Shown: positions 354 to 15,083, counted from the first letter of the stretch. The stretch: DNA of 32,550 bases from an uncultured bacterium (GCA_964619725.1 CAZUFC010000096.1:1-32550); one strand, 5' to 3'. Notes: generated from the sequence alone by a model not told the origin. Translations and numbers: made by a program.

Positions 354-1658
354 TTATTCGTCCTGAATCAACCGGATTCTCCTACCTGCCGACCAAACTT
401 CAACAGCCCTGCCGGGAAAACTCATACCCTCAAATGGCGACCATCCGCACTTTGTTTTCAAATTTTCTTTTTTTACGATAAGCGGATGATCTATATCCAG
501 AACGGTGAAGGAAGCTCTGTATCCCGGTTCGATTTTTCCGTATTTTTTACCGGAGAACCTTGAAAAAAAACGTCCCGGCGCTTCGGAAAGTATCTGAGCG
601 ATGCGCTTAAGCGAGAATTTTTCCTCCTGAATCAGCCAGGAAGCGAATGAGGCCACAGTATCCAGATGCGGAACGCCTGCGGCTCCCTTGTCTTTATCTT
701 GAAGCGTGTGAGGCGCATGGTCCGTTGCGATCATGTCTACGGCTCCGGATTCCAGGGCGCTTACCAGATACTTCCTGTCTTCTTCCGAGCGCAAAGGGGG
801 GTTCATATTCAAGAGGAGTCCCGTATTCCGGCACCTGTTTTTGAATTCTTCTGCATTCAGCAGATATCTTCTTTCCAGAGAAAAAAACAGATGGTGCGGC
901 GTCGCCTCGCAGGTGATCCTTTCTCCTTGGACCTTCCCGCGATTGTAACTTTCGATCAGTTCCAACCCTTCTTTTGTCGAAATATGGACTATATGCGTCT
1001 TCAAATCATATTTTTCCGTCCAGTTTAATACTCTTTCGACAGCCCTTATTTCCGCTTCCGCCGGTCTCTTCCGGTGATGCTTTTTTTCTGCGGCGTTTTT
1101 TCTCAGCGTATCCGGGTCCTCGCAATGAAATGCCGCGGTCAATCCCCGATATCTTTTCAACGCGGTTTCCGCTTTTTCCAGGGAGGTAAAAGCATATGGA
1201 GCAGGCTTATCGTTCATCATGAATTTATACGGCACATTACCGAACGGCGCAGAATTTTCCGTGACGGCAGCATAGAGCAGCGTATCGATTGCCGCTTTCC
1301 CTGCGAGTTCGGTTTTACGGCTGTAATTTCGGCTGTGATATGGAGGAGAGGGATTATTGGGCATTTCGGCGAATGCTGTGACGCCTCCATTGACTGCCGC
1401 TCTTCCCGCACTCAGAAAGTTTTCTTTTCGCATCTGCCCGGCAAGCTCCGAAGAAGTCTCGGCGTTCTCCTTCTCTACAGCGTATTCTCTGGCGTGTACA
1501 TGAATGTCGATGAAGCCGGGGAAGAGTATCCCCTCAATTTTTACATCGGGAAACCCGCCGGGTTCGGTTACGCTGATAATTTCACCTGCCTTCTTATCTA
1601 TTGTAATGTGTTTCTTACGGATTCCCGCTTCGGTTGGAATTCCGGCTTCGATTATCAT
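354..1658 (-). CDS. pyrC: Dihydroorotase
   Basis: Amidohydrolase motifs PGFIDIHVHARE, GGVT..EMPN, FHCED, HIVHIST, CEATPHHL, MNPPLR, ATDHAPH, KCGWSPFEG; last gene of the pyr operon. Confidence 0.93.
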   Translation of the reverse strand: MIIEAGIPTEAGIRKKHITIDKKAGEIISVTEPGGFPDVKIEGILFPGFIDIHVHAREYAVEKENAETSSELAGQMRKENFLSAGRAAVNGGVTAFAEMPNNPSPPYHSRNYSRKTELAGKAAIDTLLYAAVTENSAPFGNVPYKFMMNDKPAPYAFTSLEKAETALKRYRGLTAAFHCEDPDTLRKNAAEKKHHRKRPAEAEIRAVERVLNWTEKYDLKTHIVHISTKEGLELIESYNRGKVQGERITCEATPHHLFFSLERRYLLNAEEFKNRCRNTGLLLNMNPPLRSEEDRKYLVSALESGAVDMIATDHAPHTLQDKDKGAAGVPHLDTVASFASWLIQEEKFSLKRIAQILSEAPGRFFSRFSGKKYGKIEPGYRASFTVLDIDHPLIVKKENLKTKCGWSPFEGMSFPGRAVEVWSAGRRIRLIQDE

Positions 1659-1659
1659 A

Positions 1660-3417
1660 TCAGATTTCCCTGAGGTTGCCGGAGCGGGAGCTTTTGAATT
1701 TTCCGAATCTTTTCCAGCGCTTCGCTTCGGCTGCCGTTACTATGTGAGTATCCACGCAGGCTAGTCTCCCGTCTTCCAGGCTGCAGCTTCCGCATACGCC
1801 TACGCCGCATTTCATGTAGGGTTCGAGTATTAATCGTATATTCTTCAGTGGGATGAACGGTTCGATTTTATCGACGAGAGCTTTCAGCATTTTTTCCGGT
1901 CCGCAGGCGATGATTTCCATATCCGGGTTTTCCGATGCAGAGATATGTTCCAGCAGGCAATCGACGACATTGCCGCAATAGCCCGCTGTACCGTCTTCAG
2001 TGGCAGGGAAAAAATCGCATCCTTCCAGGTTTTCCAAAACTTCCGCCAACGCCAGCTCGCTTTTGCCGCCCGTACCGTAAAAAAACAAAAGCGGTCTTTC
2101 GCTTCCGCTATTTCGCCTGTATCTTTTATACGCGAAATACAACGGAGCGGCCCCGGTTCCTCCCGCAACAAGAATGCTCCTTTTTTGGGAATTTAAGGCG
2201 ACCGATTTTCCGTAAGGACCGCGTACCAGGAAAGGGTCTCCGGGTTTCAGATTGAAAAATCTTTCGGTGAAGGGACCTTTTTTGCCGGAAGGATGTTCGA
2301 TGAGGCGAACCAGCAGAGTGAAAGGATCATCCAGAGCTACGGAATAGGGTTTTTCTGTGGCGGGTTCTCCTGGAAGAAGGATGAATGCGAACTGTCCGGG
2401 GTCTGAAGGCAGCGGTTTATCAGCCTTCATGAGGGCCAGTCGGGGTGAGGGAAATTCGATATGTTCCACGTGGAACATTTCATATTTCATCAGCCCCTTA
2501 TTCACCATAAACCTGGCATTATCGGCGTTCCGCTCAAGATCATGTTTCAAAGTCTCCAGATAATCCTTCACTTTTTTGATGCTCATTCCCGCAAGAGCGC
2601 TTCCTATTCCGAAAAATCCCGCGCCCGCCTGGCGGTAAGCCTTCACCTGCGTCGCCCCCTGGATGCCGCCCATGGCAATAACCGGAATATTCGTCCTCGC
2701 CGTAATTTCCCTGACGCAAGCCGCCCCGAACGGCCATATGCCCGCCCCGGACATGCCCCCCAATTTGTTCGACAATATCGGCTCACCGAAAAAAGGATCA
2801 AGCGCCAGCCCCGGTCCCACCGTATTAATGGCCGCTATGCCGTCAGCGCCGCTTTTTTCCGCGGCCGCGGCCAACTCGCCGATATTCCCGAAATTCGGCG
2901 ACAACTTGACGAAAACCGGCTTGCCCGTGGTCTTTTTCACGGCTTTGACCGCTTTTTCCACGTTTTCCGGGTTCCTTCCGATCAGAGCGCCGCCGGCCGC
3001 CACATGAGGACACGACAGGTTCAATTCCAGTCCGTCGCACAGGGGACCGAGTCTTCCGGCCAGTTCAGCGAATTCCTTTTCAAAGTCGTCCAGGGCGCCG
3101 TCGGCAAACAGCGAAACAAGCAGATAAACGCCGCCGGGCAAAGGCAATATTTCCTTTAATTCTTTCTCAAATTCCTCCACTCCGGGATTAGACAATCCAA
3201 CTGCATTGACGTAACTTCCCGGTTCATATTCCGCCAGGACGGGTTCCCTGTTCCCGTCCCGGGGATTCAAACCTATGCTCTTGGTCGTTATGCCGCCCAG
3301 TCCAGGGACGTCATCGGCCAGCCGCCGCACAGTTTCGACCCGGCATGAATAGACTCCCGATACCGTAAAAAAGGGCGATCTTATATTCTTACCCGTCAAC
3401 CGCTTCTCTAATCTCAT
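1660..3417 (-). CDS. pyrD: Dihydroorotate dehydrogenase family 1B catalytic subunit fused to C-terminal electron-transfer subunit (PyrD-PyrK fusion)
   Basis: N-terminal ~300 aa carry TTKSIG, NAVGLSNPG, ELNLSCPH, VKLSPN, AINT, GGMSG, MGGI. C-terminal part carries PGQF, EKPYS, RGPYG, VAGGTGAAP, ACGPE and the [2Fe-2S] motif MKCGVGVCGSC..C. Confidence 0.92.
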   Translation of the reverse strand: MRLEKRLTGKNIRSPFFTVSGVYSCRVETVRRLADDVPGLGGITTKSIGLNPRDGNREPVLAEYEPGSYVNAVGLSNPGVEEFEKELKEILPLPGGVYLLVSLFADGALDDFEKEFAELAGRLGPLCDGLELNLSCPHVAAGGALIGRNPENVEKAVKAVKKTTGKPVFVKLSPNFGNIGELAAAAEKSGADGIAAINTVGPGLALDPFFGEPILSNKLGGMSGAGIWPFGAACVREITARTNIPVIAMGGIQGATQVKAYRQAGAGFFGIGSALAGMSIKKVKDYLETLKHDLERNADNARFMVNKGLMKYEMFHVEHIEFPSPRLALMKADKPLPSDPGQFAFILLPGEPATEKPYSVALDDPFTLLVRLIEHPSGKKGPFTERFFNLKPGDPFLVRGPYGKSVALNSQKRSILVAGGTGAAPLYFAYKRYRRNSGSERPLLFFYGTGGKSELALAEVLENLEGCDFFPATEDGTAGYCGNVVDCLLEHISASENPDMEIIACGPEKMLKALVDKIEPFIPLKNIRLILEPYMKCGVGVCGSCSLEDGRLACVDTHIVTAAEAKRWKRFGKFKSSRSGNLREI

Positions 3418-4120
3418 CCGTAATCCTCTCCAACGATTCTTCCGGCGTCATACCCGAAGGCGGTTTCGTAACGGCCCTGCCGATCACCAGAAAATCAGCT
3501 CCGTCCCTGACCGCATCGCCGGGCGCAGCGATACGCTTCTGATCGTTCGCTGCGCTCCAGGCCGGTCTTATTCCCGGAGTCACGATAACAAAATCGTCTC
3601 CGCAAGCTTTCCTCACGGTCTTTATCTCTTTCGGCGAAGCCACCACTCCGTCCAATCCCGCCTTTTTCGCCAGCAAAGCCATTTTTTTAACGTATTCCTT
3701 GGAGGAATAATCCAAACCAAGCTCCATGCGCATCACATCGTCATCGATACTGGTCAAAACCGTCACTGCTATCAGCCAAGGCCTGTCATGCCTGCCCGTT
3801 TCATCCAGCGCTTTTTTCGCTGCGTTCATCATGGCGAATCCGCCCGAAGCATGAAGATTCATCATTTTCACCTTCATTCCGGCCGCCTCTTTTACCGCGC
3901 CTGCAACAGTATTGGGAATGTCGTGGAATTTCAAATCCAGAAATATCTGTGCTCCCAGACTGTTCACAAGCGCAACGCTTTCAGGACCGAATCGCGTGAA
4001 TGACTGCAGACCAAGTTTAAAAGCCCCGGCTTTTCCCTTGAGCCTGCTCACCCAATCCTCAATTTCCTTCAGACTGTTCATGCCGTCCAAAGCAATCATT
4101 ATTCTGTCCTTCGCTTTCAT
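3389..4120 (-). CDS. pyrF: Orotidine-5'-phosphate decarboxylase
   Basis: IALD, FKLG, FLDLKFHDIPNTV, AVTVLTS, VTPGIRP, DQKR, VIGR motifs. Confidence 0.97.
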   Translation of the reverse strand: MKAKDRIMIALDGMNSLKEIEDWVSRLKGKAGAFKLGLQSFTRFGPESVALVNSLGAQIFLDLKFHDIPNTVAGAVKEAAGMKVKMMNLHASGGFAMMNAAKKALDETGRHDRPWLIAVTVLTSIDDDVMRMELGLDYSSKEYVKKMALLAKKAGLDGVVASPKEIKTVRKACGDDFVIVTPGIRPAWSAANDQKRIAAPGDAVRDGADFLVIGRAVTKPPSGMTPEESLERITDEIREAVDG

Positions 4121-4935
4121 TTTTTCGTTCTTTCCCTTTCAACTTCTTCCATGATTTTCCGGCGCTCTTCAACATCCTGAAATCGATCAACATTCTCCTG
4201 ATATTCTTTAATCAGTTCAAACTCATAACCATGCATAACTTCTTTCAGCCAGAACAAACCTTCCCTTTTAAACTTTATCAGCGAATGAAGAGTCATGCCG
4301 GCGCTTTCAGCCTGTTTTTCGGCTCCCTGTTCTCTGTCCAGTACGACGACGGCATAATCGCACATCAACTCCGTTATGCCGTTTTTTTGTGCCTGGAAAA
4401 GCGCCAGTTCCCTGGCTATTTCTTTTGAGCCGAATGATGTTACCATGTCATCGACTATAACCAGGACATCATTATTTTTCAGGCGTCCTTCCAGAAGCTG
4501 ATGTCCGCCCCAGTCCTTTTCTGATTTAAGTTCTTTCAGGGCATTCCTGGCCTGTTCCGGGGTCCTGATTTTACCGTATCCCGGTATTGGCCTGGTATAA
4601 AGAAACGGCAGCCGCCAGGACAGATTTCTGTATGCCTCGCAAGAAACAAGCGCGGCCAGCGGAATACCCGCCATATCGACTCCCACAATCCCGGTCGCTT
4701 CCGGTATCTCCTTCTGAATCAGCAAGGCAAGATAATGACCGATTTTAGCCGCCAGCTCAGGCGCAGCGCCCAAAGGACGCAAATTTAAATACCAGGGACT
4801 CCATACCCCGCTTTTCAACACCCAACCCTTTTTTCTTTTCAGCTCATCCGAAGAATTGAACAGTGTCTCAATCATCCCATAACGGTAAAGCTCCCTGATG
4901 ATTTCTTTTCCAAATTCTTCTCTATTGAATTCCAT
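4117..4935 (-). CDS. pyrE: Orotate phosphoribosyltransferase, long atypical form
   Basis: LKSGVWSPWYLNLR, GIPLA, PRPP-binding VIVDDMVTSFGSK, VVLDREQG. Overlaps pyrF by 4 bp; RBS GAGGGAG upstream. Confidence 0.88.
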   Translation of the reverse strand: MEFNREEFGKEIIRELYRYGMIETLFNSSDELKRKKGWVLKSGVWSPWYLNLRPLGAAPELAAKIGHYLALLIQKEIPEATGIVGVDMAGIPLAALVSCEAYRNLSWRLPFLYTRPIPGYGKIRTPEQARNALKELKSEKDWGGHQLLEGRLKNNDVLVIVDDMVTSFGSKEIARELALFQAQKNGITELMCDYAVVVLDREQGAEKQAESAGMTLHSLIKFKREGLFWLKEVMHGYEFELIKEYQENVDRFQDVEERRKIMEEVERERTKK

Positions 4936-5062
4936 GATTTATTCTCCCTCATTAAACTCCGCGTTAAACATGCCCGCACGCAGCAGTTTTGTCAAGAAAC
5001 CGACTGTTATTCGCCTTTTCTTTTGTCGATAATAAATTCGTTTTCATGTTTTTGGAAGGAGG

Positions 5063-5103
5063 AAAGGACAAAAGGACGAAAGGACCTAAGGGACGGAAAG
5101 GAC
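5063..5103. repeat. Five AAAGGAC-like units at 8-9 bp spacing
   Basis: AAAGGAC at 5063, 5071, 5079 and 5097; AAGGGAC at 5088. Confidence 0.8.
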
Positions 5104-5115
5104 AAGATAATTTTT

Positions 5116-5369
5116 GGCATTGATCAAAACTGGGCCTTTTGAAGTTACAACTCGGTCAGCGAGCAGTCTGCAAGAGGCCGTGAGATAATTATGAATTAAT
5201 ACGCATTTGCGCTTCCGTAAGACGAAAAACAACCCCTGATACGGTGATGTCCATGCTTCGTCGCGAGCGAATCGCATCGACATAAGCGTATATTCCCCCA
5301 TTACTAATGGGAATTTGCTCAGTCATTTTTTTTACCGATGAAAACTGTAACCCCGGTTTGATCAGTCCC
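5116..5369 (+). mobile_element. MITE-like element, subtype B, with internal hairpins
   Basis: Ends GGCATTGATCAAAA and TGTAACCCCGGTTTGATCAGTCCC. Interior is colinear with 12813..12897 joined to 13131..13228. No flanking duplication seen. Confidence 0.72.
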
Positions 5370-5418
5370 CTCGTATCGGCTTTTTGTATGAGATATCTCC
5401 GTCAGATATTCCGCCGCA

Positions 5419-6510
5419 TCATACGGGCAAATTGTCGTCTTCGCTCATCAACTCCTCACGCTGAATGTCCTTTTTAGTGAGAGCGATGGCCTGTTCGGCT
5501 TTGATTGCGCCTTCTTTGGGCTGTTTTTTGCCTACCATGAATATCCAGACTATGCCGAAGTAGACGGTGAGGGGGATGATGAGGAAATAGAAAAAGTAGA
5601 GTATGGGATGGATGGGGATCAGGTCCGGGTTTGTAAACCTGGCGAGGTTGAACAGGATAATCACTGTTGAAATGAAATCAACTGAAAAATTAGCATGCGG
5701 ATTGCTGGCGCGAAACAGTGAAAGTCCGTCGCTTCTTTTTTTAATGAAGGGCCAGATAAGCGACCCGCCCATGTGACCAGTGAGGTCTTCGGTGATGTGG
5801 GTAGCGAAACCCAGGAAGGCCGTCAAGCCATAGAGGTACCAATAGCTGAATCCGGCGAGCCAGGGGATGAGTGCAAAGGGTATGGCCAGCAGGAGACCCA
5901 GCACATAGGAATGGCTCCAGGTTCTGTGCCAGGGCAGAAATTCAACCGTCACCTTGCCTTTTTCCTTATGGAACCCGAACTGCGGTCCGCTGAGTATATC
6001 GACGACCGAGGGTCTTCCATGAGTTTCCAGCAGTTCGCCTTTTAATTTATATTTGCCGACCCGGTTTTCCTTGGGTTCCGTGCCGGGGAAGGGCACCTGT
6101 GAAGTGCTGACGATTTCATTCAGTACCACTATGACTTCGTTCGTGTTTCCGTCGAATTTGATGACGTATTGCCTCCACAGGTTGCTTCCAAGGCGCATGG
6201 GGAAGAGCTGAACGCGCTTGTATTTTCCGGTTTCATGGACTTCATCCATGGTTTTTCCTATTGTTTCGGCCATTTTCTGAGGGTCCGGATTCTCGGGATC
6301 GCATTCAACGTCGACTTCGGCTTTGGAAAAAAATTGTCCCAGTTTGAAATCCAGAGTATCCGGCATAATGCCGAATAATCCGCCCAGGCAGAGAATAAAA
6401 GAAGCCTCAGCGCCGGGCAGTGCGGAGCGTTCTGCTGCCGCTTTGACGACGGCCGGCGCGATGAAACTCGCCGCCGCCACTCCGCTCATAAAATGTGTCA
6501 AACCTTTCAT
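5419..6510 (-). CDS. Membrane-bound metal-dependent hydrolase (YdjM/DUF457-like) with ~140 aa soluble insertion
   Basis: Motifs MKGLTH, GIMPDTLD, WHRTWSHS and ATHITED, plus several hydrophobic helices. Confidence 0.8.
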   Translation of the reverse strand: MKGLTHFMSGVAAASFIAPAVVKAAAERSALPGAEASFILCLGGLFGIMPDTLDFKLGQFFSKAEVDVECDPENPDPQKMAETIGKTMDEVHETGKYKRVQLFPMRLGSNLWRQYVIKFDGNTNEVIVVLNEIVSTSQVPFPGTEPKENRVGKYKLKGELLETHGRPSVVDILSGPQFGFHKEKGKVTVEFLPWHRTWSHSYVLGLLLAIPFALIPWLAGFSYWYLYGLTAFLGFATHITEDLTGHMGGSLIWPFIKKRSDGLSLFRASNPHANFSVDFISTVIILFNLARFTNPDLIPIHPILYFFYFLIIPLTVYFGIVWIFMVGKKQPKEGAIKAEQAIALTKKDIQREELMSEDDNLPV

Positions 6511-6513
6511 TGT

Positions 6514-7848
6514 TTACACTCCCGCTAATCCGAAAAATTCGATGACGGCTTCTCCGTATCCTGCCATATTGAGGGCAATGGGTACCATAAGAACGGCCAT
6601 GCAATTCGATCTTCTGCAGTGGAAGAAGACTGGTATAGAGCCTATGCAGGAGGCTACGGCAAGAACGAACAAGCCGCCGAATCCCGTCAGGACGTATATC
6701 AGGGCAATAAGCAGGACCAGAGCGGCCCAGTATAATTTATGATAATCAATTCTTTTAAGCACAGCGATGGTCAGGATTGAGCCGTAAACCAGGATGAGAA
6801 AAGAGAGGCATCCTGCGGTCAGGATTGATGCCAGCATGACCCAGTATTGTCCGGGAAGTGGCGTGAACACCGGCTTCAAAATGACGCTTAAACCTCCACG
6901 GCTTATTCCATGAGGCGTCAAAGGCGTTATGACGAACAACAGCAGAAAAGCGCCGACGTAATATATGATCTTGGAAACGCCCCCGGAAACGATAAAAATT
7001 TTATCTCCTCTCTGGGCCGTGGCATGTCCCGCGATAATGCCTCCGATACCGGCAGTGACTGCAGGCAGATAAGAAGCCAGCAATCCTCCCAGACCTCCCT
7101 GGAATGTGCTTTTACCTAACGTTACCCAATCGAGGTCCACGGATTTGCTCACGTATTGTTCAGGGAACCGTTCGCGTGAGAGAAGATTCTGGACGATGCT
7201 CGGTATGGCGAAAAGACCGACGAAAACCGGCATGATGTTCTGGAATCCCATTTCATGAGTGATGATGGACTTGGAGGTAACGATCAAACCGAGGACGGCC
7301 GAAAAAGCGAAAGTAATTATTCCAGCGAACAGGTTCTGCCAGGCGTCGGCTATGCGCGCCCACACGGTGTCCCCGCGTCCCACGCCCTTGGGCCATTCGC
7401 TCATCAGCATATAAACCATAACCAGTCCGAGTATCCAATGCATGTGAACGGCTACTATGTTGTGGATGTAAGGAAACACCAGGTAGAAGAAAGGCGTCAG
7501 AGCTGCCAGAAGAACTACTCCGGCCAAATTTCCAATTCCCGTCAGCATGGCGGCTTCATAACCGCGTCCGGTCATCATGTATTTAGTTCCCGGAAGAATC
7601 GTCACCGTCGCAGACTCGTCCGGCGCGCCGATGAAAGTCATGGGTATCGTATTCACAAACGCGAAAGATACCACTAGCGACATAAAAAACGGCGCTACGG
7701 CTTCAGGAGGAAACAGGTTCGGCGTCAACTGCCAGAAAAGCAACACCAGGCCGGCGACGTTATAAATATGTAAAGAAGGCAGCAAAGAAAGTAATCCGCC
7801 CATCAGGACTCCGAGCGGAACAGCGATTAATATCGGCAGAATTTCCAT
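6514..7848 (-). CDS. Tripartite tricarboxylate transporter TctA-like permease (short form, no TctB/TctC nearby)
   Basis: Polytopic membrane protein with GLLSLLPSLHIYN, IPMTFIGAPDESATVTILPG..MMTGRGYEA, PVFVGLFAIP and a second-repeat LPAVTAG motif; 444 aa. Confidence 0.82.
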   Translation of the reverse strand: MEILPILIAVPLGVLMGGLLSLLPSLHIYNVAGLVLLFWQLTPNLFPPEAVAPFFMSLVVSFAFVNTIPMTFIGAPDESATVTILPGTKYMMTGRGYEAAMLTGIGNLAGVVLLAALTPFFYLVFPYIHNIVAVHMHWILGLVMVYMLMSEWPKGVGRGDTVWARIADAWQNLFAGIITFAFSAVLGLIVTSKSIITHEMGFQNIMPVFVGLFAIPSIVQNLLSRERFPEQYVSKSVDLDWVTLGKSTFQGGLGGLLASYLPAVTAGIGGIIAGHATAQRGDKIFIVSGGVSKIIYYVGAFLLLFVITPLTPHGISRGGLSVILKPVFTPLPGQYWVMLASILTAGCLSFLILVYGSILTIAVLKRIDYHKLYWAALVLLIALIYVLTGFGGLFVLAVASCIGSIPVFFHCRRSNCMAVLMVPIALNMAGYGEAVIEFFGLAGV

Positions 7849-7896
7849 TTTTTTCTTCCCGTTTTACGTCGATTCATTCATATGAGAATATTCGAT

Positions 7897-9093
7897 TCAA
7901 TTTTTAACTTCATCCAGAAAAAGTATTTCTTTCGGATTCTCCAGCAGCAGTTGAGGTTTGCCACGGAACTCCGATACCTTGACCCTCGCCCTGAAACGGG
8001 CTCCCGTATCCATCATTTTTTCACCGTTTTCTACACCGTTGAAAATGCCGTCGTAAACGAAAAAGGTCATGGTATCCGTATCGTCCGTCACCTGCAGAGA
8101 CCGGCCCACATTCTCAATCTGCCTCGACTCGACCGTTTTTACCTCTATCACTGCCCAGCTTCCTACAGGCTTCAGCAAAATATCGCTCAAATATTCTCGC
8201 TTTTCCTCCAGCAAACTCTCGGTATTATATTCCCGTTTCTCCAGGAATACGAGATTCTCCGGATTTTCGGGGTTCTTCAACTTCAGTTGGCATTCTTCCT
8301 CGTAGCGGTCAACCGTTACGACCATTTCGAATACGCTGCCCGGTTCAAAGAGCATCTCCTTTGACGCTCCTTCCGGTATGCTCTCATACTGACGCTCAAA
8401 CAGACTCAATTCCATACTCGCATTTCCGTCCCTCAACTGAATGGAGTAACCGCTCCCGAACTGCCGGTGTCCAGTAACTTCAGCTTCAATAATATACGTT
8501 TCATTAACGTCGTCCAAAGTAATATCAGCCAGCTCAGCCTCTTTAACCTCGTATTTTTGCAGCATTTTCAGGCGAGACGGTATGCTGAGGAACATCGTCG
8601 CTCCCCATTGCTCGCTTATACTGAGATTCCCTATGACTTCGATCCTGTCTCCTATACCGGGAAAATCCTCCTTGAAGGCATCCCTGAAACGGTCCAGTTT
8701 TCCGAATCCTCCCAGAGATATCGTGCCCGTTCCGTCATCCAGCGTTAACCTGAAGGTGTTCTTCTCTTCCTGAACGCTGCTGCCGGTGACTATCCCCTGC
8801 AGCTTTACCAGAGCCATGTTATGATTAGCGCCTATGGTCCCTATTTCCATCGCCGGCACTTCGGACAATTTGGCCGCCAGCCACAACAGAACCAGACCGA
8901 CAATCGATCCGATCACGACGCTTCTTTTCACCCATCGCACATCCATTCTGTATTTCATTTCCGCCTGGCAATAAGGACAACGATCATACGCTCCTACATA
9001 TCGCCCGCAACTGGGACAATGCACGGCCTGGTCTTCCATCACCTTTTCGTGAAGCTTCTTTCCCGTATTTTCAACAGCTTGTTTTTCGTCCAT
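7897..9093 (-). CDS. Single-pass membrane protein with N-terminal Zn ribbon and three OB-fold-like repeats
   Basis: CPSC..CPYC, TM helix VVIGSIVGLVLLWLAA, and three OB-like repeats (LDDGTGTI..GDRIEVIG; LRDGNASM..GSVFEM; VTDDTDTM..GARFRARVKVSEFRGKPQL). Start moved to ATG at 9093, preceded by GGGGAGG. Confidence 0.8.
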   Translation of the reverse strand: MDEKQAVENTGKKLHEKVMEDQAVHCPSCGRYVGAYDRCPYCQAEMKYRMDVRWVKRSVVIGSIVGLVLLWLAAKLSEVPAMEIGTIGANHNMALVKLQGIVTGSSVQEEKNTFRLTLDDGTGTISLGGFGKLDRFRDAFKEDFPGIGDRIEVIGNLSISEQWGATMFLSIPSRLKMLQKYEVKEAELADITLDDVNETYIIEAEVTGHRQFGSGYSIQLRDGNASMELSLFERQYESIPEGASKEMLFEPGSVFEMVVTVDRYEEECQLKLKNPENPENLVFLEKREYNTESLLEEKREYLSDILLKPVGSWAVIEVKTVESRQIENVGRSLQVTDDTDTMTFFVYDGIFNGVENGEKMMDTGARFRARVKVSEFRGKPQLLLENPKEILFLDEVKN

Positions 9094-9165
9094 AAGAATC
9101 CTCCCCGGAACGCTTATGTTCGCAAAATTACGAAAAAAAGTCAATGCTTACGTCCATCCGGCGAC

Positions 9166-9194
9166 TTGACTGCCCTCCTCGCCTCGGTTATCTT
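9166..9194 (+). promoter_or_regulatory. Putative sigma70 promoter of HAD gene
   Basis: TTGACT-17 bp-TATCTT, ending 9 nt before the ATG at 9204. Confidence 0.5.
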
Positions 9195-9203
9195 CTCCAT
9201 ACC

Positions 9204-9851
9204 ATGATTCGAGCTGTTATATTCGATATGGACGGCGTTATTTCAGATACTCAAAAACTCCATTCAAAGGTCGATTCCGATACCTTGAGGAAACTGGGCA
9301 TCGATATTTCGCCTGAACATATCACAAGACATTACTCCGGTGTCCCGACCAGCGACTTCTTCCTTGATATCCTCAGGCAATACGAGATGGAAATCGATAT
9401 AAAAACGCTCATGAGTGAAAGATGGGAAAACATCTACGAACTGGCCGAGAATGGAATATATCCCATTCCCGGGTCCAGGCGCCTTATTCAATCACTCCAT
9501 GCTCATCATTATAAACTGGCCGTCGCTTCTTCTTCATCCCATAAATTCATCCGCATGGTCCTTGCACATCTGGACCTCATTCAATATTTCGATGCCCTGA
9601 CAAGCGGAGATGAAGCCCCGAAAGGTAAACCCTCTCCGGATATATTCCTCATTACCGCCCAAAAATTGTCCGTCCCTCCCTCTGATTGTCTCGTGATCGA
9701 GGACGGCCTCAGCGGCATGAAAGCAGCCTCGTCCGCCGGCATGAAATGCGTGGGCCTGGTCCCAAAAGATGAAGCTCGACGATATCCCGCCGATTCAGTC
9801 GTTCACAGCCTCCTGGACGTTACCGTGGAAACAGTGGAAAACCTCGGATGA
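9204..9851 (+). CDS. HAD family phosphatase (beta-phosphoglucomutase/CbbY-like)
   Basis: MIRAVIFDMDGVISD motif I, VASSS, KGKPSPDIF, VIEDGLSG. Start moved to 9204. Confidence 0.92.
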   Translation: MIRAVIFDMDGVISDTQKLHSKVDSDTLRKLGIDISPEHITRHYSGVPTSDFFLDILRQYEMEIDIKTLMSERWENIYELAENGIYPIPGSRRLIQSLHAHHYKLAVASSSSHKFIRMVLAHLDLIQYFDALTSGDEAPKGKPSPDIFLITAQKLSVPPSDCLVIEDGLSGMKAASSAGMKCVGLVPKDEARRYPADSVVHSLLDVTVETVENLG

Positions 9852-10108
9852 TTTCATTTTTAACACATAAAACGGACCTACAGCGCAAAAGACCGTTCAC
9901 AGGGCTTTTACATATCTTTTGCAGGATATTGCTTCCGGCCCTTCCGCAACCCTTCAAACCCTGTTGATGGGGTTAGTCACCGTTAATTAATGACTGACTT
10001 GTTCAACCCTATTCGAATATTGCCTTTTAACTTGATTTGTTGTATTAGTCGAACGGGTTGAAGGAGAAAGGATCGGTTTAATGACAGAGGAACCGAAAAG
10101 AGATTGAA

Positions 10109-12451
10109 ATGCTGATCGAAAAAACGAACCGGCTTAAGAAAACAACTCCTGAGGCGTTTATTCAAAAAGCGGAAGCCTGGGCTCATATAATTGCTGAGGG
10201 TATCAAAAGCAAAAATGATCCTATAGCCCCAGAACATGCTTTCATAATCGGCCGAGGCATCATCCAACAGATCATCTGTTTGAGATTATGCGAAGAGATG
10301 GGAATGGAGGCTGCCGGACAACTCAAGTCACTCAGTCGTAAAACCGACATATTCCTCAAATTGCAGCAGATATCCGGCAAAGCGGCGAAACGCTATCACA
10401 GTGAGGCGTTCAATATTCCCGAAAATAAGTCTTTATGGGACGCATGCGGTTTTAACGCGCGAAAAGCGATGATAGACGATTCGGTTCTCAGCGATTTATT
10501 AAACACTCTGTATAGTAATGAGAACACGTTTGAATTTTCCAGTCTTTCAATAAATATTCCGGGCGTTCTTCACGAGTTTTTTATTGAAAAGGAAGGCCGG
10601 CACAAACAATTTGCCGGAGAGAGAAACAAAATCAGGAGGAAGCGAAAGCGCGACGGAGTTTTTTACACGCCGGATCATATCGTTCGGTATATATCGGAAG
10701 AAACGTTGAGCCGGTTGTTGGGCAGCAGTTTTCGAGTCGGAACTTCGGACGAACGGAAACCGGCAGTGCTGGACCCGGCATGCGGAGCGGGCTGGTTTCT
10801 TGTTCAGAGTTACCGGTATTTATTGGATCGTCATAGAACATATTATCTTCAGGAACCTGCGAAGTGGTCGCAGAGAGGAATCGGGCGTTTGAGGCGCCGT
10901 CAATCGGGGTGGGAATTGACTTTCAGGGAGCGAGCACGCATTCTTGTCGATCATATCTACGGCGTCGACCTGGACCCCCGGGCCGTTGAACTTACGAAGC
11001 TTTCACTGATATTCGCGCTTTTTGAAACGTCAAGAAAAATAGGGATACCCCGGAATTCGCTGTTCGGCGATTACTATGCTGGGCCGGTCCCAGATTTAAG
11101 GAACAATATTAAATGCGGCAATTCGTTGATTGAGTCTGACTATTTTTCCGTTTCAGGAAATCTCTTCAAAAAGAAGATGAAAGACGACATGAAAGTTTTC
11201 GATTGGAAAAAAAGGTTTCCGGCGATCATGAAATCAGGAGGATTCGACGCGGTGATGGGGAACCCGCCCTGGGGCGGCGATATCGATTCATACTTGGAAT
11301 ATTTACACGTCAGGTACCGGGCGAGCTCACGGGGACATACGGATATATTCAAGTGCTTTATTGAAAGAAGCGTTAATTTGACGAAAGAAAACGGTTTTTT
11401 GTGCATGATCACGCCGGCCGCCTTATTACGTCAGAGACGATTTTCAGATATCCGGTCATTCCTGATGAAATACAAAATACACGAAATAATCCAACTGGGT
11501 GACAACGTGTTCAGAAACGTGACCGCTCCAAGCTGCATATTTCTAATGGAAAAAAGCATCCGGCAAGGAAACGAAAAAACGATTCTTTATGATCTGAAAG
11601 ACCTTTTAAACACCGAAAGAAAAATAGCTCTGCAAAAACGTAAAATGAAAGGCATCGCATCTCATCAGAGTCGATTTATAGAAAATCCGGACTTCGCTTT
11701 TGGGGAGATGAAGAGGCATTATACGGCTCTTTCCGTCCCTTTGGGACGTCTGGACGCGCTGTCTTGCAGAGACGCCGGCATAAATTATCAGAGGAAAAAT
11801 GTGGGCATGCAGGAAAAGGGATACGGGAGTCTTTCTAAAAGACTGCTTTATGAAGGCGCGCAAGAGAAAACTGAGGACATGATGTACTGGAAAGGATCAG
11901 ACATAAATCGCTACTGGATAGCCGAAACCACGAATCGTTTCTGCAGGACAAATTACAGGGAGTTTACAGGTTCCAACGAAACCGTGACGCTGAACAGGAA
12001 AGTATTTGAAACCGCGCCGAAAATTCTCATTCGTCAAACAGCAGACAGGATCATCGCTGCAGTCGATTATAGGGGCATATGGTTCGGAAGGAGCCTGATC
12101 GCCATATTGCCCGCCCGGAATTCCCCTTACAGCATAGAATATTTCCTTGGACTGTTGAATTCGCAGCGCTTTAACGATATGTATCAGGAGCTTGTCGATG
12201 AATCGGGGCGCGCTTTTCCCCAGGTCAAGCTGTCGAAAATCAAGCAATTGCCGGTCAGAACAATCGATTTCGAGAATCCGTCAGAAAAAAAACTGCACGA
12301 CGATATGGCGAATTGTGTGAAAAAAATTATCGCCTTTAAGCGTAAGCAGCGCGCTCCAGGTGAAAAAGCGAGTGCCGGAGGCCTCAAACAAGAGATTGAA
12401 TCGTACGAAAAAAAAATAGATGCCCTGACGTATGCTCTGTACAACGTTTAA
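10109..12451 (+). CDS. N6-adenine DNA methyltransferase, Eco57I/type IIG-like with TaqI-like specificity domain, no N-terminal endonuclease domain
   Basis: GVFYTP, VLDPACGAGWFL, IYGVDLD, NIKCGNSL, GGFDAVMGNPPW, KILIRQT, YFLGLLNS, C-terminal IDALTYALY. Confidence 0.88.
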   Translation: MLIEKTNRLKKTTPEAFIQKAEAWAHIIAEGIKSKNDPIAPEHAFIIGRGIIQQIICLRLCEEMGMEAAGQLKSLSRKTDIFLKLQQISGKAAKRYHSEAFNIPENKSLWDACGFNARKAMIDDSVLSDLLNTLYSNENTFEFSSLSINIPGVLHEFFIEKEGRHKQFAGERNKIRRKRKRDGVFYTPDHIVRYISEETLSRLLGSSFRVGTSDERKPAVLDPACGAGWFLVQSYRYLLDRHRTYYLQEPAKWSQRGIGRLRRRQSGWELTFRERARILVDHIYGVDLDPRAVELTKLSLIFALFETSRKIGIPRNSLFGDYYAGPVPDLRNNIKCGNSLIESDYFSVSGNLFKKKMKDDMKVFDWKKRFPAIMKSGGFDAVMGNPPWGGDIDSYLEYLHVRYRASSRGHTDIFKCFIERSVNLTKENGFLCMITPAALLRQRRFSDIRSFLMKYKIHEIIQLGDNVFRNVTAPSCIFLMEKSIRQGNEKTILYDLKDLLNTERKIALQKRKMKGIASHQSRFIENPDFAFGEMKRHYTALSVPLGRLDALSCRDAGINYQRKNVGMQEKGYGSLSKRLLYEGAQEKTEDMMYWKGSDINRYWIAETTNRFCRTNYREFTGSNETVTLNRKVFETAPKILIRQTADRIIAAVDYRGIWFGRSLIAILPARNSPYSIEYFLGLLNSQRFNDMYQELVDESGRAFPQVKLSKIKQLPVRTIDFENPSEKKLHDDMANCVKKIIAFKRKQRAPGEKASAGGLKQEIESYEKKIDALTYALYNV

Positions 12452-13247: not shown

Positions 13248-15083
13248 TCAACGGAAAAAGAAAATATCGCAGTCGATGGAGAAAATGGAGAATGTTCCTG
13301 CTTCGGTCACGGCAGCCCATAGTCTGAAGGGGCCCATAGGGACGACGAAGGGGACCTGGAATCGGAGCGGCGTATGAGACAATGCTTCTCCAGCATGCAA
13401 ATCTCTCGTCATGAAATCGATATTGAGTCCCCAGGAGGGCCAGAAGTAATATTGAAACGGACCGTATTGAGGACCTAAATCCAGAAAGATGTATTCATCG
13501 ACTGAAATGGCCGGACCGGGATTCTCAATAGTAACGCTATAGATAAACTCATCGTTGAAACTGAAGTACTGTTGATTTAATTCGCCTGTTATGACCGGTT
13601 CAGTAATGAGTGTCGGGCGGGGCGATGGTGTTGATGTCGTATGGAATGTCGGGGACGGCGGTTCGGTGGGAACGAAAGATGTCGGCGAAGGAGTTTCAGT
13701 GGGCGTTTCTGTGGGGATGAAAACGGTGGGAGTTCTAGTGGGGGTTCTTGTCGGGATATGAATCGTGGGCGTATACGTGGGAGAACGCGTCGGCGTCCCG
13801 GTGTAACTCGGCGTTATTGTCGGCGTTCTGGTGGCTGTTCTCGTGGATGACGGCGTTCGAGTGGGCGTAGAGGTCTCCGTAGGCTGAGCGCTGGTCGACG
13901 TTGGCGTTATTGTCGGCGTGTACGTCGCCGTTCCTGTGGGATGCGTTGCCGTCGACGTCGGAGTAGCGGTCCCGCCGCCTCGTATGTAAGGACCGGCGAA
14001 CCCGGCGTCCCCCGCGAACCTCATGCAATTATTCGATCCAGCGCACGCTGGATAATCAGCCTGAGCCTGGTCGAAAGCATCCTTGACTGTCCACCCGGCG
14101 TTCATCCGGCTGAACAGACTGTTCTGCCAGCTTATGGAATAATCCCAGCACGTATCGCAGTAATATTCTGACATCCCGCAATACCCAACCGTAACCGCAT
14201 CCTGACTTGATCCTTTCCTGAACACGTAAGAAAAGGTCCCGTTACCCACCGAACACATGCCTTCGCAACTGCCGATAAATGTGAAAGGCATTTTCGGGTA
14301 GGAAGAAATCCAGCTTTCCACTTCGCTCGAATAGGTATACTCAAAAGCGCTGCCCCCGCTGCATCCGCTTGCGAAATAGGCGCTGCCGCCGTGCGCCAAC
14401 TCGTAAAACATCCCGACCGTATTGTTCTGTATTCGACTCGCCACCTGCGCCTGAGTCGGCCATACTATCTCCTCACAATTGTAACCCATCGTATTGAACC
14501 ATTCCTGGGCATTCCCCGACCAGGAACTCCACGATCCCGAACAAGGATAATCATACCAGGGTCCCGTCAAAGCGAATCCTTCATAAGGAGGCGCTATCCC
14601 ATCTCCCAGATACTCGCCGGTTACCGCATCAATCACTTTTATCCTTATTGCCCCTTCTTCCTTACATCTGACTACCCAGCATGGATTCTTCGGAGCCGGA
14701 TCAATCGGATATACGTCGGAATCCGGAGAAATCATCTTCAAAATTGAAAAAAGAGTCCGGCCGCCGGCCAGCCATTCAGCATCCGCCTGCGGGACGCGAA
14801 TATCAAAATGCTCCGGCAAATCCTTACGATGCCTTATATCCCGCTTCAGCAACTCGCCCGTCTCCCTGTGAAAATGATACAAATCATAATCCTTTTCTAT
14901 TACCGCTCCATCAATCATTCTCTGACGGAAAAAAACTATTTTTTCTCCGATATCCAGACGCTTGAATGCCTTATAATCCTCCTCATAAGGCTCTAAAAAC
15001 CCATATCCGCCCGATGCCGCGCCGGCCGCAATCAAACACAGCAAAAAATAAATTGCTGAAAAAACGCCTGTAAATTTTTTCAT
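13248..15083 (-). CDS. Secreted putative clan CD (gingipain/caspase-like) cysteine protease with PepSY-like propeptide, Pro/Thr linker and C-terminal domain
   Basis: Signal peptide; CWVV..IDAVTGE (PepSY-like); FYELAHGG and FTFIGSCEG as His/Cys dyad; ~120 aa TP/PT repeats; C-terminal domain with YYFWPSW. Confidence 0.62.
   Translation of the reverse strand: MKKFTGVFSAIYFLLCLIAAGAASGGYGFLEPYEEDYKAFKRLDIGEKIVFFRQRMIDGAVIEKDYDLYHFHRETGELLKRDIRHRKDLPEHFDIRVPQADAEWLAGGRTLFSILKMISPDSDVYPIDPAPKNPCWVVRCKEEGAIRIKVIDAVTGEYLGDGIAPPYEGFALTGPWYDYPCSGSWSSWSGNAQEWFNTMGYNCEEIVWPTQAQVASRIQNNTVGMFYELAHGGSAYFASGCSGGSAFEYTYSSEVESWISSYPKMPFTFIGSCEGMCSVGNGTFSYVFRKGSSQDAVTVGYCGMSEYYCDTCWDYSISWQNSLFSRMNAGWTVKDAFDQAQADYPACAGSNNCMRFAGDAGFAGPYIRGGGTATPTSTATHPTGTATYTPTITPTSTSAQPTETSTPTRTPSSTRTATRTPTITPSYTGTPTRSPTYTPTIHIPTRTPTRTPTVFIPTETPTETPSPTSFVPTEPPSPTFHTTSTPSPRPTLITEPVITGELNQQYFSFNDEFIYSVTIENPGPAISVDEYIFLDLGPQYGPFQYYFWPSWGLNIDFMTRDLHAGEALSHTPLRFQVPFVVPMGPFRLWAAVTEAGTFSIFSIDCDIFFFR

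Follow-up and report, generated by a model that had tools for sequence, protein, structure and literature searches.

A conserved bacterial operon of OB-fold, TctA-like and YdjM-like membrane proteins related to an archaeal OB/TctA-like gene pairing

A stretch of 32,550 nt from an uncultured bacterium (GCA_964619725.1 CAZUFC010000096.1:1-32550; the whole stretch is called the window here) contains at 5,419..9,093 three genes, hereafter the trio, for a membrane-anchored OB-fold protein, a short TctA-like permease and a YdjM-like membrane protein. They correspond to three co-directional minus-strand open reading frames (ORFs) in the ORF listing of the window, 7897-9144, 6514-7848 and 5419-6510, with gaps of 48 nt between gene 1 and gene 2 and 3 nt between gene 2 and gene 3; these coordinates agree with an earlier sequence-only reading of this DNA, which described three co-directional membrane-protein genes spaced 48 and 3 bp apart. 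With dnaN, recF, gyrB and gyrA at 24.7-31.8 kb, the window is bacterial and lies close to the replication origin. The source assembly (9.17 Mb in 344 contigs, 90.9% complete, 6.5% contamination) belongs to a small candidate phylum with 14 species genomes, six of which carry the TctA-like gene. The features of the trio are as follows.

9099..9106, minus strand: Shine-Dalgarno motif GGGGAGGA, 5 nt upstream of the ATG at 9093 (read from the sequence)
7897..9093, minus strand: gene 1, bitopic OB-fold protein, 398 aa (ORF, Pfam, alignment of 31 homologues)
8968..9018, minus strand: CPxCG...CPxC zinc ribbon of gene 1, residues 26-42 (Pfam, alignment)
8866..8922, minus strand: single transmembrane (TM) helix of gene 1, about residues 58-76 (hydropathy; aligns with the TM helix of archaeal small OB proteins)
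8560..8844, minus strand: OB1 of gene 1, about residues 84-178 (PF01336; the repeat common to archaeal small TM-OB proteins)
8245..8538, minus strand: OB2 of gene 1, about residues 186-283, strongly acidic (PF13742 below cut-off; YhaM match in a PDB profile search)
7900..8196, minus strand: third, C-terminal OB-like repeat of gene 1, about residues 300-398 (alignment with homologues)
6514..7848, minus strand: gene 2, short TctA-like permease, 444 aa (PF01970, homologues, tree, hhalign)
5419..6510, minus strand: gene 3, YdjM/DUF457-like polytopic membrane protein, 363 aa (PF04307)
5935..6342, minus strand: soluble insertion of gene 3, about 136 aa, residues 57-192 (alignment)

The reading frame of gene 1 opens at TTG, and the in-frame ATG at 9093, which gives the 398-aa product, is its likely start because GGGGAGGA lies 5 nt upstream and homologues start at the same place. 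The alignment of 31 homologues gives a common layout of zinc ribbon, basic stretch, one hydrophobic helix, OB1 and OB2, followed in some proteins by the third repeat. C26, C29, C39 and C42 are kept in at least 90% of the aligned proteins, and weak zinc-ribbon Pfam matches fall at residues 19-47. OB1, with the motifs NxAL, DDGTG and GD, matches PF01336 at E 2.2e-10 (residues 96-159, 40.7 bits vs a cut-off of 27), and OB2, with the motif YRGxxQL, gives a sub-threshold match to PF13742 (E 4.4e-4, residues 194-272) and a match to YhaM over profile positions 194-290. The C-terminal repeats of those homologues that have a third one match PF01336 or PF13742, and that of the window protein was not detected alone by the OB hidden Markov models built here. 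The best PDB matches of the family profile are YhaM (8.7e-5), TiaS (1.1e-4), archaeal RPA32 (6.5e-4) and SSB, and by sequence the protein belongs to the RPA/SSB/YhaM type of OB fold (PF01336). Charge counts alone, with a mean of 4.6 Lys and Arg in the 15 residues before the helix vs 2.2 after it among the homologues, suggest an N-in, C-out topology, in which the ribbon would be cytoplasmic and the OB repeats outside. All 28 longer OB homologues scanned against Pfam contain PF01336, with up to six PF01336 stretches in a single protein; an N-terminal GYF_2 domain occurs in five, a sub-threshold DUF4131 match in three, and a nuclease or helix-hairpin-helix domain in none. Since the number of OB repeats varies in this way, a polymer ligand would fit better than a small solute.

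Gene 2 is a distant relative of canonical TctA. It matches PF01970 at E 5.4e-35 with 121.3 bits, and trio-type proteins across 44 genomes carrying the trio score 88-133 bits, vs 527.7 bits for the canonical TctA of one of them (G002), the only one of the 44 that also has a canonical TctCBA locus, with the TctC and TctB domains encoded just upstream of TctA. The window's own genome has one PF01970 match and, at its 90.9% completeness, none to TctC (PF03401) or TctB (PF07331), which extends to the whole assembly the lack of a TctB or TctC partner noted by the sequence-only reading; neither a place among canonical permeases (121 vs 528 bits) nor tctBC genes elsewhere in the genome was found. Like the canonical TctABC citrate system of Salmonella, the window system has a PF01970 large subunit and shares several Gly, Pro, Gln and Met motif positions with it, but the permease is 444 aa long rather than 514, has His27 where the canonical protein has Ser, and comes from a genome without detected TctB or TctC. 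None of the three marks of a canonical tripartite tricarboxylate transporter (a PF01970 score at the level of characterised TctA proteins, a TctB and a TctC) was seen for the window system.

The relatives of gene 2 are numerous. Among 8000 scored candidates, 1529 were TctA-like at E <=1e-5, and an exhaustive phmmer search of 1.84 billion representatives gave 1300 proteins at E <=1e-3, 753 at 1e-10 and 81 at 1e-30. A FastTree phylogeny was built from 150 representatives among the phmmer matches listed and six further bacterial proteins, restricted to rows of 380-560 aa (121 rows), with canonical TctA as the outgroup. The window protein and all eight rows known to be bacterial fall in a 62-row clade (support 100, stem 0.78), and all nine rows with archaeal names fall outside it. 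Names among the rows outside this bacterial clade include Methanobacteriota, Hydrothermarchaeales, Thermococci, Euryarchaeota, Methanomicrobia, Aenigmarchaeota and Halobacteria, and further names are Woesearchaeota, Nanoarchaeota and Thermoproteota, with one row labelled Bacteroidota. Two of these archaeal-named rows, P0284 (from a Methanobacteriota metagenome-assembled genome) and P0307 (with a Thermococci-labelled protein in its cluster), fall together with the bacterial clade (support 100), as opposed to 57 other rows (support 86). The branch to canonical TctA is 2.6 long; with this one long outgroup and FastTree as the only method, we claim no direction of transfer. Profile comparison of the two clades with hhalign gives a probability of 100%, E 2.7e-69 and 26% identity. 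By sequence, then, archaeal short TctA-like proteins are the nearest relatives outside the bacterial clade. The sequence-only reading had posed the question as one between an archaeal short clade and the TctABC clade: the separation from canonical TctABC stood, and gene 2 falls in a separate bacterial clade whose nearest outside relatives are archaeal. His27 is kept in both clades, and 17 of the 28 positions conserved in both, including G13, P24, Q231, M417 and P423, are common to canonical TctA.

Some observations on individual proteins of this family can be added. Conserved His, Cys and Met residues in the TctA-like protein were the ground on which a metal-transport reading was considered. 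A PDB profile search returned no solved structure related to it by sequence. One entry labelled Altiarchaeales (P0117), used as a query, did not lead to archaea; it is 83% identical to a Spirochaetes-labelled protein, has bacterial neighbours and lies on a 2.7-kb contig, and its label is probably a binning error. Another protein, P0256 (852 aa), has about 418 N-terminal residues with repeated OB-like segments followed by PF01970 at 418-826, and may be a fusion of OB and TctA-like partners; the OB profile built here gave no match in it, and it is not used as evidence.

Gene 3 matches PF04307 (YdjM) at E 7.5e-10 with 39 bits vs a cut-off of 29, and all 37 of its homologues match the same family. 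H6, D51, D54, K56, R196, W198, H200, H238 and D242 are invariant in the alignment of these 37, and H195 and E241 nearly so; the conserved His/Asp set corresponds to the putative metal ligands of the family, for which metal-dependent hydrolase activity is predicted at family level. Like E. coli YdjM and YbcI (PF04307, DUF457), which are predicted membrane-bound metal-dependent hydrolases, gene 3 matches above threshold and keeps the His/Asp motifs, but it differs from them by the soluble insertion of about 136 aa, which splits the domain between the PDTLDFK and LPWHRTWSHS motifs, and by its fixed place next to OB and TctA-like partners in one operon. No Pfam family covers the insertion, and no PDB match to it was found below E 0.1. 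E. coli ydjM is a member of the LexA/SOS regulon. Among the papers listed by the literature searches, none was found to give an activity for any PF04307 member. A link to Zn-dependent phospholipase C and P1 nuclease, with which YdjM presumably shares a Pfam clan, was considered and dropped; none of the 37 proteins matches PF00882 or PF02265, PDB profile searches gave no matches, and the link is unsupported for trio members. The genome encodes one other PF04307 protein, of 498 aa (G000:C3:59500-63500, ORF 716-2212, minus strand; L185), in which a YdjM-like membrane part is fused to C-terminal repeats that by eye look like a TolB-type beta-propeller; it matches neither the OB nor the trio-YdjM profile.

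A pattern scan over one genome per species matched 499 stretches, 352 of which encode a TctA-like relative, and the best 80 loci were kept and searched with OB and YdjM profiles built from our alignments, counting only where the flanks give room. The OB gene was adjacent upstream on the same strand in 61 of 75 such loci, further off on the same side in five and not found in nine; the YdjM-like gene was adjacent downstream in 59 of 73, further off on the same side in three and not found in 11. All three genes were present in 55 of the 69 loci with room on both sides, tightly packed in 51 of the 55. Among the distances between OB and TctA-like genes, seven are -4 nt and two are -1 nt, overlaps that are typical of translational coupling. 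In three loci where the OB profile match is absent or distant (L064, L081 and L083), and in one with little upstream room (L072), another PF01336 gene directly precedes the TctA-like gene. The labels of the loci span at least 12 phyla, among them Muiribacteriota, CSSED10-310, Ozemobacteraceae, Elusimicrobiota, Sumerlaeota, Lindowbacteria, Hydrogenedentota, Chlamydiota, Spirochaetes, Dependentiae, Auribacterota, Chloroflexota/Anaerolineae, Planctomycetota, Verrucomicrobiota and Kiritimatiellia. The three genes form one conserved operon, in an arrangement beyond chance, and the co-occurrence check that the sequence-only reading had proposed has turned its single locus into a conserved module. 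Genes beyond the trio vary from locus to locus. In L052, L059, L064, L058 and L068 a beta-propeller or Por_Secre_tail protein is encoded between the trio genes or next to them, and a Lactamase_B_2 gene of the metallo-beta-lactamase fold precedes the OB gene in L021 and L043 (Tritonobacter and Auribacterota labels).

The closest experimentally studied counterpart is archaeal. Fonseca et al. (2023, PMC10133366) report that natural transformation in Methanococcus maripaludis is abolished when MMJJ_13020 or MMJJ_13030 is hit by a transposon or deleted in frame, and that complementation, with plasmids delivered by polyethylene glycol, restores it. MMJJ_13020 is described there as an OB-fold protein with one TM helix and the neighbouring MMJJ_13030 as a TctA-like protein that has 11; deletion of the TctA-like homologue in Methanoculleus thermophilus had the same effect, and the authors propose, without having demonstrated it, that the TctA-like protein is a DNA transporter (PMC10133366). 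The sequence-only reading had mentioned a stand-alone TctA-like gene as necessary for transformation in methanogens, and the published result bears this out and goes further, in that the OB and TctA-like proteins are both essential (PMC10133366). In the full-text literature, subscription journals and supplements aside, TctA and an OB fold were linked only in that paper and its preprint, and no description of the bacterial OB/TctA-like/YdjM-like operon was found; two later papers contained no follow-up of the archaeal result that we could find.

A metagenome scan with an archaeal-clade TctA-like profile found 575 relatives, and 80 loci were retained from them. In 15 of the 63 archaeal-clade loci with room, the bacterial OB profile matched an ORF of about 115 aa immediately upstream of the TctA-like gene. 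These proteins consist of an N-terminal helix and one OB fold, with PF01336 found in 16 of 19. A second OB profile, built from those 19 proteins and therefore circular in its count for the same 19, was applied to 66 archaeal-clade loci with room and found the OB gene adjacent on the same strand in 20, adjacent and divergent in two, elsewhere in 11 and nowhere in the flanks in 33. Compared by hhalign, the archaeal small OB family and the bacterial OB family match with a probability of 98.1% and E 1e-13 over the helix and OB1 (window residues 47-159). On this profile comparison the archaeal TM-OB protein is homologous to the TM helix and OB1 of the window protein.

The window pair and MMJJ_13020/13030 are alike in being adjacent and co-directional, in combining a single-pass PF01336-type OB protein with a short TctA-like protein, and in lacking TctB and TctC; the adjacent gene for such an OB protein, by which the archaeal transformation pair can be recognised, is present at the window locus. 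The homology established here is with an archaeal-clade pairing of the same architecture. The bacterial OB protein differs from MMJJ_13020 in being 3-4 times longer, with a cytoplasmic zinc ribbon and 2 to 6 OB repeats; the bacterial TctA-like proteins differ from MMJJ_13030 in forming a clade of their own, in hosts that also carry ComEC; and the bacterial system adds a third, YdjM-like gene.

Several observations on the archaeal loci stand apart from this comparison. At one locus, a staphylococcal-nuclease homologue (L168:3473-3886, plus strand; PF00565, 1.9e-22) is encoded 84 nt upstream of the TctA-like gene; the transformation genes of M. maripaludis likewise include a thermonuclease (PMC10133366). 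Ribosomal protein L35Ae is encoded just downstream of the TctA-like gene in L098, L118, L121, L123, L125, L140, L154 and L166, making up 8 of the 112 neighbour ORFs scanned in archaeal-clade loci, and the contigs that bear it are probably from DPANN archaea. One small neighbour in the archaeal clade gives two sub-threshold matches, to PF00882 (7.1e-8) and PF04307 (2.9e-6). An Atlas search gave, as a lead only, a cluster of archaeal "DNA-binding" proteins 466 aa long, in which 100% of members carry PF04307 and 39% PF01336 and which compares with the model of a trio YdjM-like homologue at a TM-score of 0.79.

The sequence-only reading had also named the trio a candidate for uptake independent of ComEC. 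As a claim of replacement this finds no support, as the window's own genome encodes a ComEC complete in its DUF4131, Competence and Lactamase_B domains, a second PF03772 gene, three DprA matches and nine HHH_3 (ComEA-like) matches, of which two sets adjoin the ComEC genes, and PF03772 is present in 43 of the 44 trio genomes. Because ComEC is complete in the genome itself and present in nearly all the others, the trio does not take the place of an absent ComEC. The likeness between the two is one of function only, each bringing together at the cytoplasmic membrane an OB fold, a polytopic part and a hydrolase predicted to be metal-dependent, in ComEC within one gene and in the trio over three genes that co-occur with ComEC. 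No trio protein matches PF13567, PF03772 or PF00753 at E <=0.1, and hhalign gives the OB protein and the N-terminal OB domain of the genome's own ComEC a probability of 0.45%, that is, no similarity; the parallel is an analogy. A second, divergent ComEC-like gene, with an open frame of about 930-1180 aa and a PF03772 match split in two, occurs in this genome (G000:C63:3884-4858), where two HHH_3 matches flank it; the pattern recurs in many of the 44 genomes.

Taken together, the operon is conserved in bacteria, homologous by sequence to the archaeal pairing, distant from canonical TctABC and accompanied by ComEC; its ligand, the direction of transport, hydrolase activity and the formation of a complex are what we infer. 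We consider that the trio may be a nucleic-acid capture and import module, a bacterial three-gene relative of the archaeal transformation pair. In our view nucleic acid is the most likely substrate, given the type of OB fold, the tandem OB arrays, whose variable length would suit a linear polymer, and the one set of genetic data for the family. In this proposal the trio would act as one cytoplasmic-membrane machine made from one operon. The OB protein, anchored by its one helix, would have the zinc ribbon on the cytoplasmic side and several RPA/YhaM-type OB folds in a row on the outside, and these folds would capture linear nucleic acid, whether single-stranded DNA, RNA or oligonucleotides. 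The TctA-like permease, probably docking the helix of the OB protein, would move the nucleic acid or its fragments across the membrane, and the YdjM-like protein, with its intact His/Asp metal site and family-specific soluble insert, would cut or trim the substrate. The trio would work beside ComEC, not instead of it.

We put the probability of this proposal at roughly 0.4, confidence being limited because the OB charge is acidic or variable, TctA has a solute-carrier ancestry, ComEC is present and linkage to competence genes is lacking. A number of points tell against it. The net charges of the window OB repeats are -1 for OB1 (pI 5.7), -14 for OB2 (pI 4.2) and -4 for the C-terminal repeat (pI 4.8), which bears out the caution of the sequence-only reading that repeats 2 and 3 are acidic; across homologues the charge of an OB repeat spans -15 to +6, and no conserved basic or aromatic binding face stands out in the 31-homologue alignment. 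The TctA family is one of small-solute carriers, and no polymer pore is indicated here. PDB profile searches connect the YdjM-like protein by sequence to no solved nuclease or other structure, and as the YdjM-like profile matches none of the 80 archaeal loci, this gene lies outside the experimentally tested archaeal pair. The MMJJ proteins are putative members of the archaeal clade found here, the bacterial members are known from their sequences, and the complete ComEC set of the genome leaves no gap to fill. Finally, no pilus or known competence gene was found among 62 chosen flanking genes in the bacterial loci. In its strongest form the proposal would have bacteria of poorly studied phyla, including Elusimicrobiota, Kiritimatiellia, Anaerolineae, Hydrogenedentota, Dependentiae and others, carry a second nucleic-acid import machine of archaeal type in parallel to ComEC, the OB array feeding a strand to a TctA-like polymer translocator and the YdjM-like metalloenzyme degrading or trimming it; we regard this form as unlikely.

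The chief alternative is secondary transport of a small anionic solute, such as a carboxylate or nucleotide, by a carrier with novel accessory subunits: the OB protein would replace TctB/TctC as scaffold or receptor, the YdjM-like protein would be an accessory enzyme or regulator, and the archaeal transformation defect would be indirect. Membership of PF01970 and the 17 of 28 positions shared with canonical TctA are as expected for such a carrier, as is the view of Makarova et al. (2015) that the archaeal arCOG04469/COG1784 genes are mostly stand-alone and probable carboxylate transporters (PMC5898192). The variable, often acidic OB charge, the presence of ComEC in 43 of 44 trio genomes and the absence of competence genes from the 62 neighbours also suit it. 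On the other hand, a receptor for small solutes would not usually carry tandem arrays of 1 to 6 or more OB repeats, the matches of this OB type are to nucleic-acid binders, and no solute-binding protein is consistently linked, a single SBP_bac_1 gene being found among those 62 neighbours. Moreover, the family's only genetics is a complete and specific loss of natural transformation (PMC10133366). We hold this alternative to be somewhat less likely than the proposal above, and the most serious one.

The trio might instead serve envelope or membrane maintenance, with the OB array binding a glycan or lipid-linked polymer, the YdjM-like protein serving as a phosphodiesterase or lipase in the membrane and the TctA-like protein moving the product. 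OB folds also bind oligosaccharides, and the acidic OB repeats, the beta-propeller and Por_Secre_tail proteins of some loci and the one small archaeal neighbour matching PF00882 (Zn-dependent phospholipase C) and PF04307 could be read in this way. None of the 37 trio YdjM-like proteins, however, matches PF00882 or PF02265, the OB repeats match nucleic-acid OB families rather than glycan-binding ones, and the archaeal phenotype concerns DNA uptake (PMC10133366), all of which makes an envelope function improbable.

A nucleotide-scavenging unit tied to the pyrimidine genes downstream is more improbable still, at the level of a few chances in a hundred. The pyrE-like, pyrF and pyrD-like genes do follow the trio on the same strand, and the sequence-only reading had taken this position as fitting nucleotide scavenging; but relatives of their proteins occur in none of the 80 related loci, so the adjacency is a local accident, a 483-nt gap separates them from the trio, and the genome encodes these pyrimidine-synthesis genes itself. 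That the three genes are neighbours by chance, without joint function, deserves next to no weight, for although each family also occurs alone, as with the second PF04307 gene of this genome, 55 of 69 loci, drawn from many phyla, repeat this gene order on one strand, in many cases with stop and start codons that overlap.

Beyond the trio, the window holds some further genes of note. The pyrD-like gene (1660-3417, minus strand) has an NAD-binding/Fe-S (PyrK-like) part fused to it and encodes 585 aa altogether, and the 272-aa pyrE-like protein (4117-4935, minus strand) is best described as a divergent orotate phosphoribosyltransferase-like protein because its TIGR00336 score of 68.7 bits is under the cut-off of 106.8. 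On the other side, at 10109-12451 on the plus strand and just past a divergent HAD phosphatase gene, a 780-aa protein with Eco57I (PF07669), N6_Mtase, TaqI_C and MmeI_Mtase domains looks like a type IIG-like restriction-modification methylase. A 611-aa ORF (13248-15083, minus strand) with no Pfam family at E <=0.001 adjoins an arylsulfotransferase-like gene and two Wzy_C O-antigen-ligase-like genes. NCBIfam has no name for any trio protein, PADLOC gave no match for any of them, and Rfam had no match within 3000-10500 of the window. Promoter-like sites (7 vs 5.5 in shuffles) and terminator-like sites (6 vs 4.8) show no excess. In viral contigs there were 37 pattern matches, none of which was confirmed.

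The DNA transporter of naturally competent archaea is still to be identified, and the OB/TctA-like pair is the leading candidate on the strength of one genetic study. Our results place the archaeal pair in a wider family with a large bacterial branch, found in at least 352 species-level genomes by one pattern scan. The partnership with the OB protein is ancient and kept in both domains, with the bacterial branch having recruited a predicted membrane metallo-hydrolase, and the conserved bacterial trio gives independent comparative support for joint action of these proteins. If a small solute is carried instead, the archaeal transformation phenotype will need another explanation. The trio offers a first functional context for YdjM/DUF457 proteins, and the bacterial systems offer material in which the movement of nucleic acid by a TctA-fold protein can be tested. 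Should they prove to be a second import machine, this would give YdjM/DUF457 proteins a first function and would point to a shared origin of DNA uptake in archaea and part of the bacteria.

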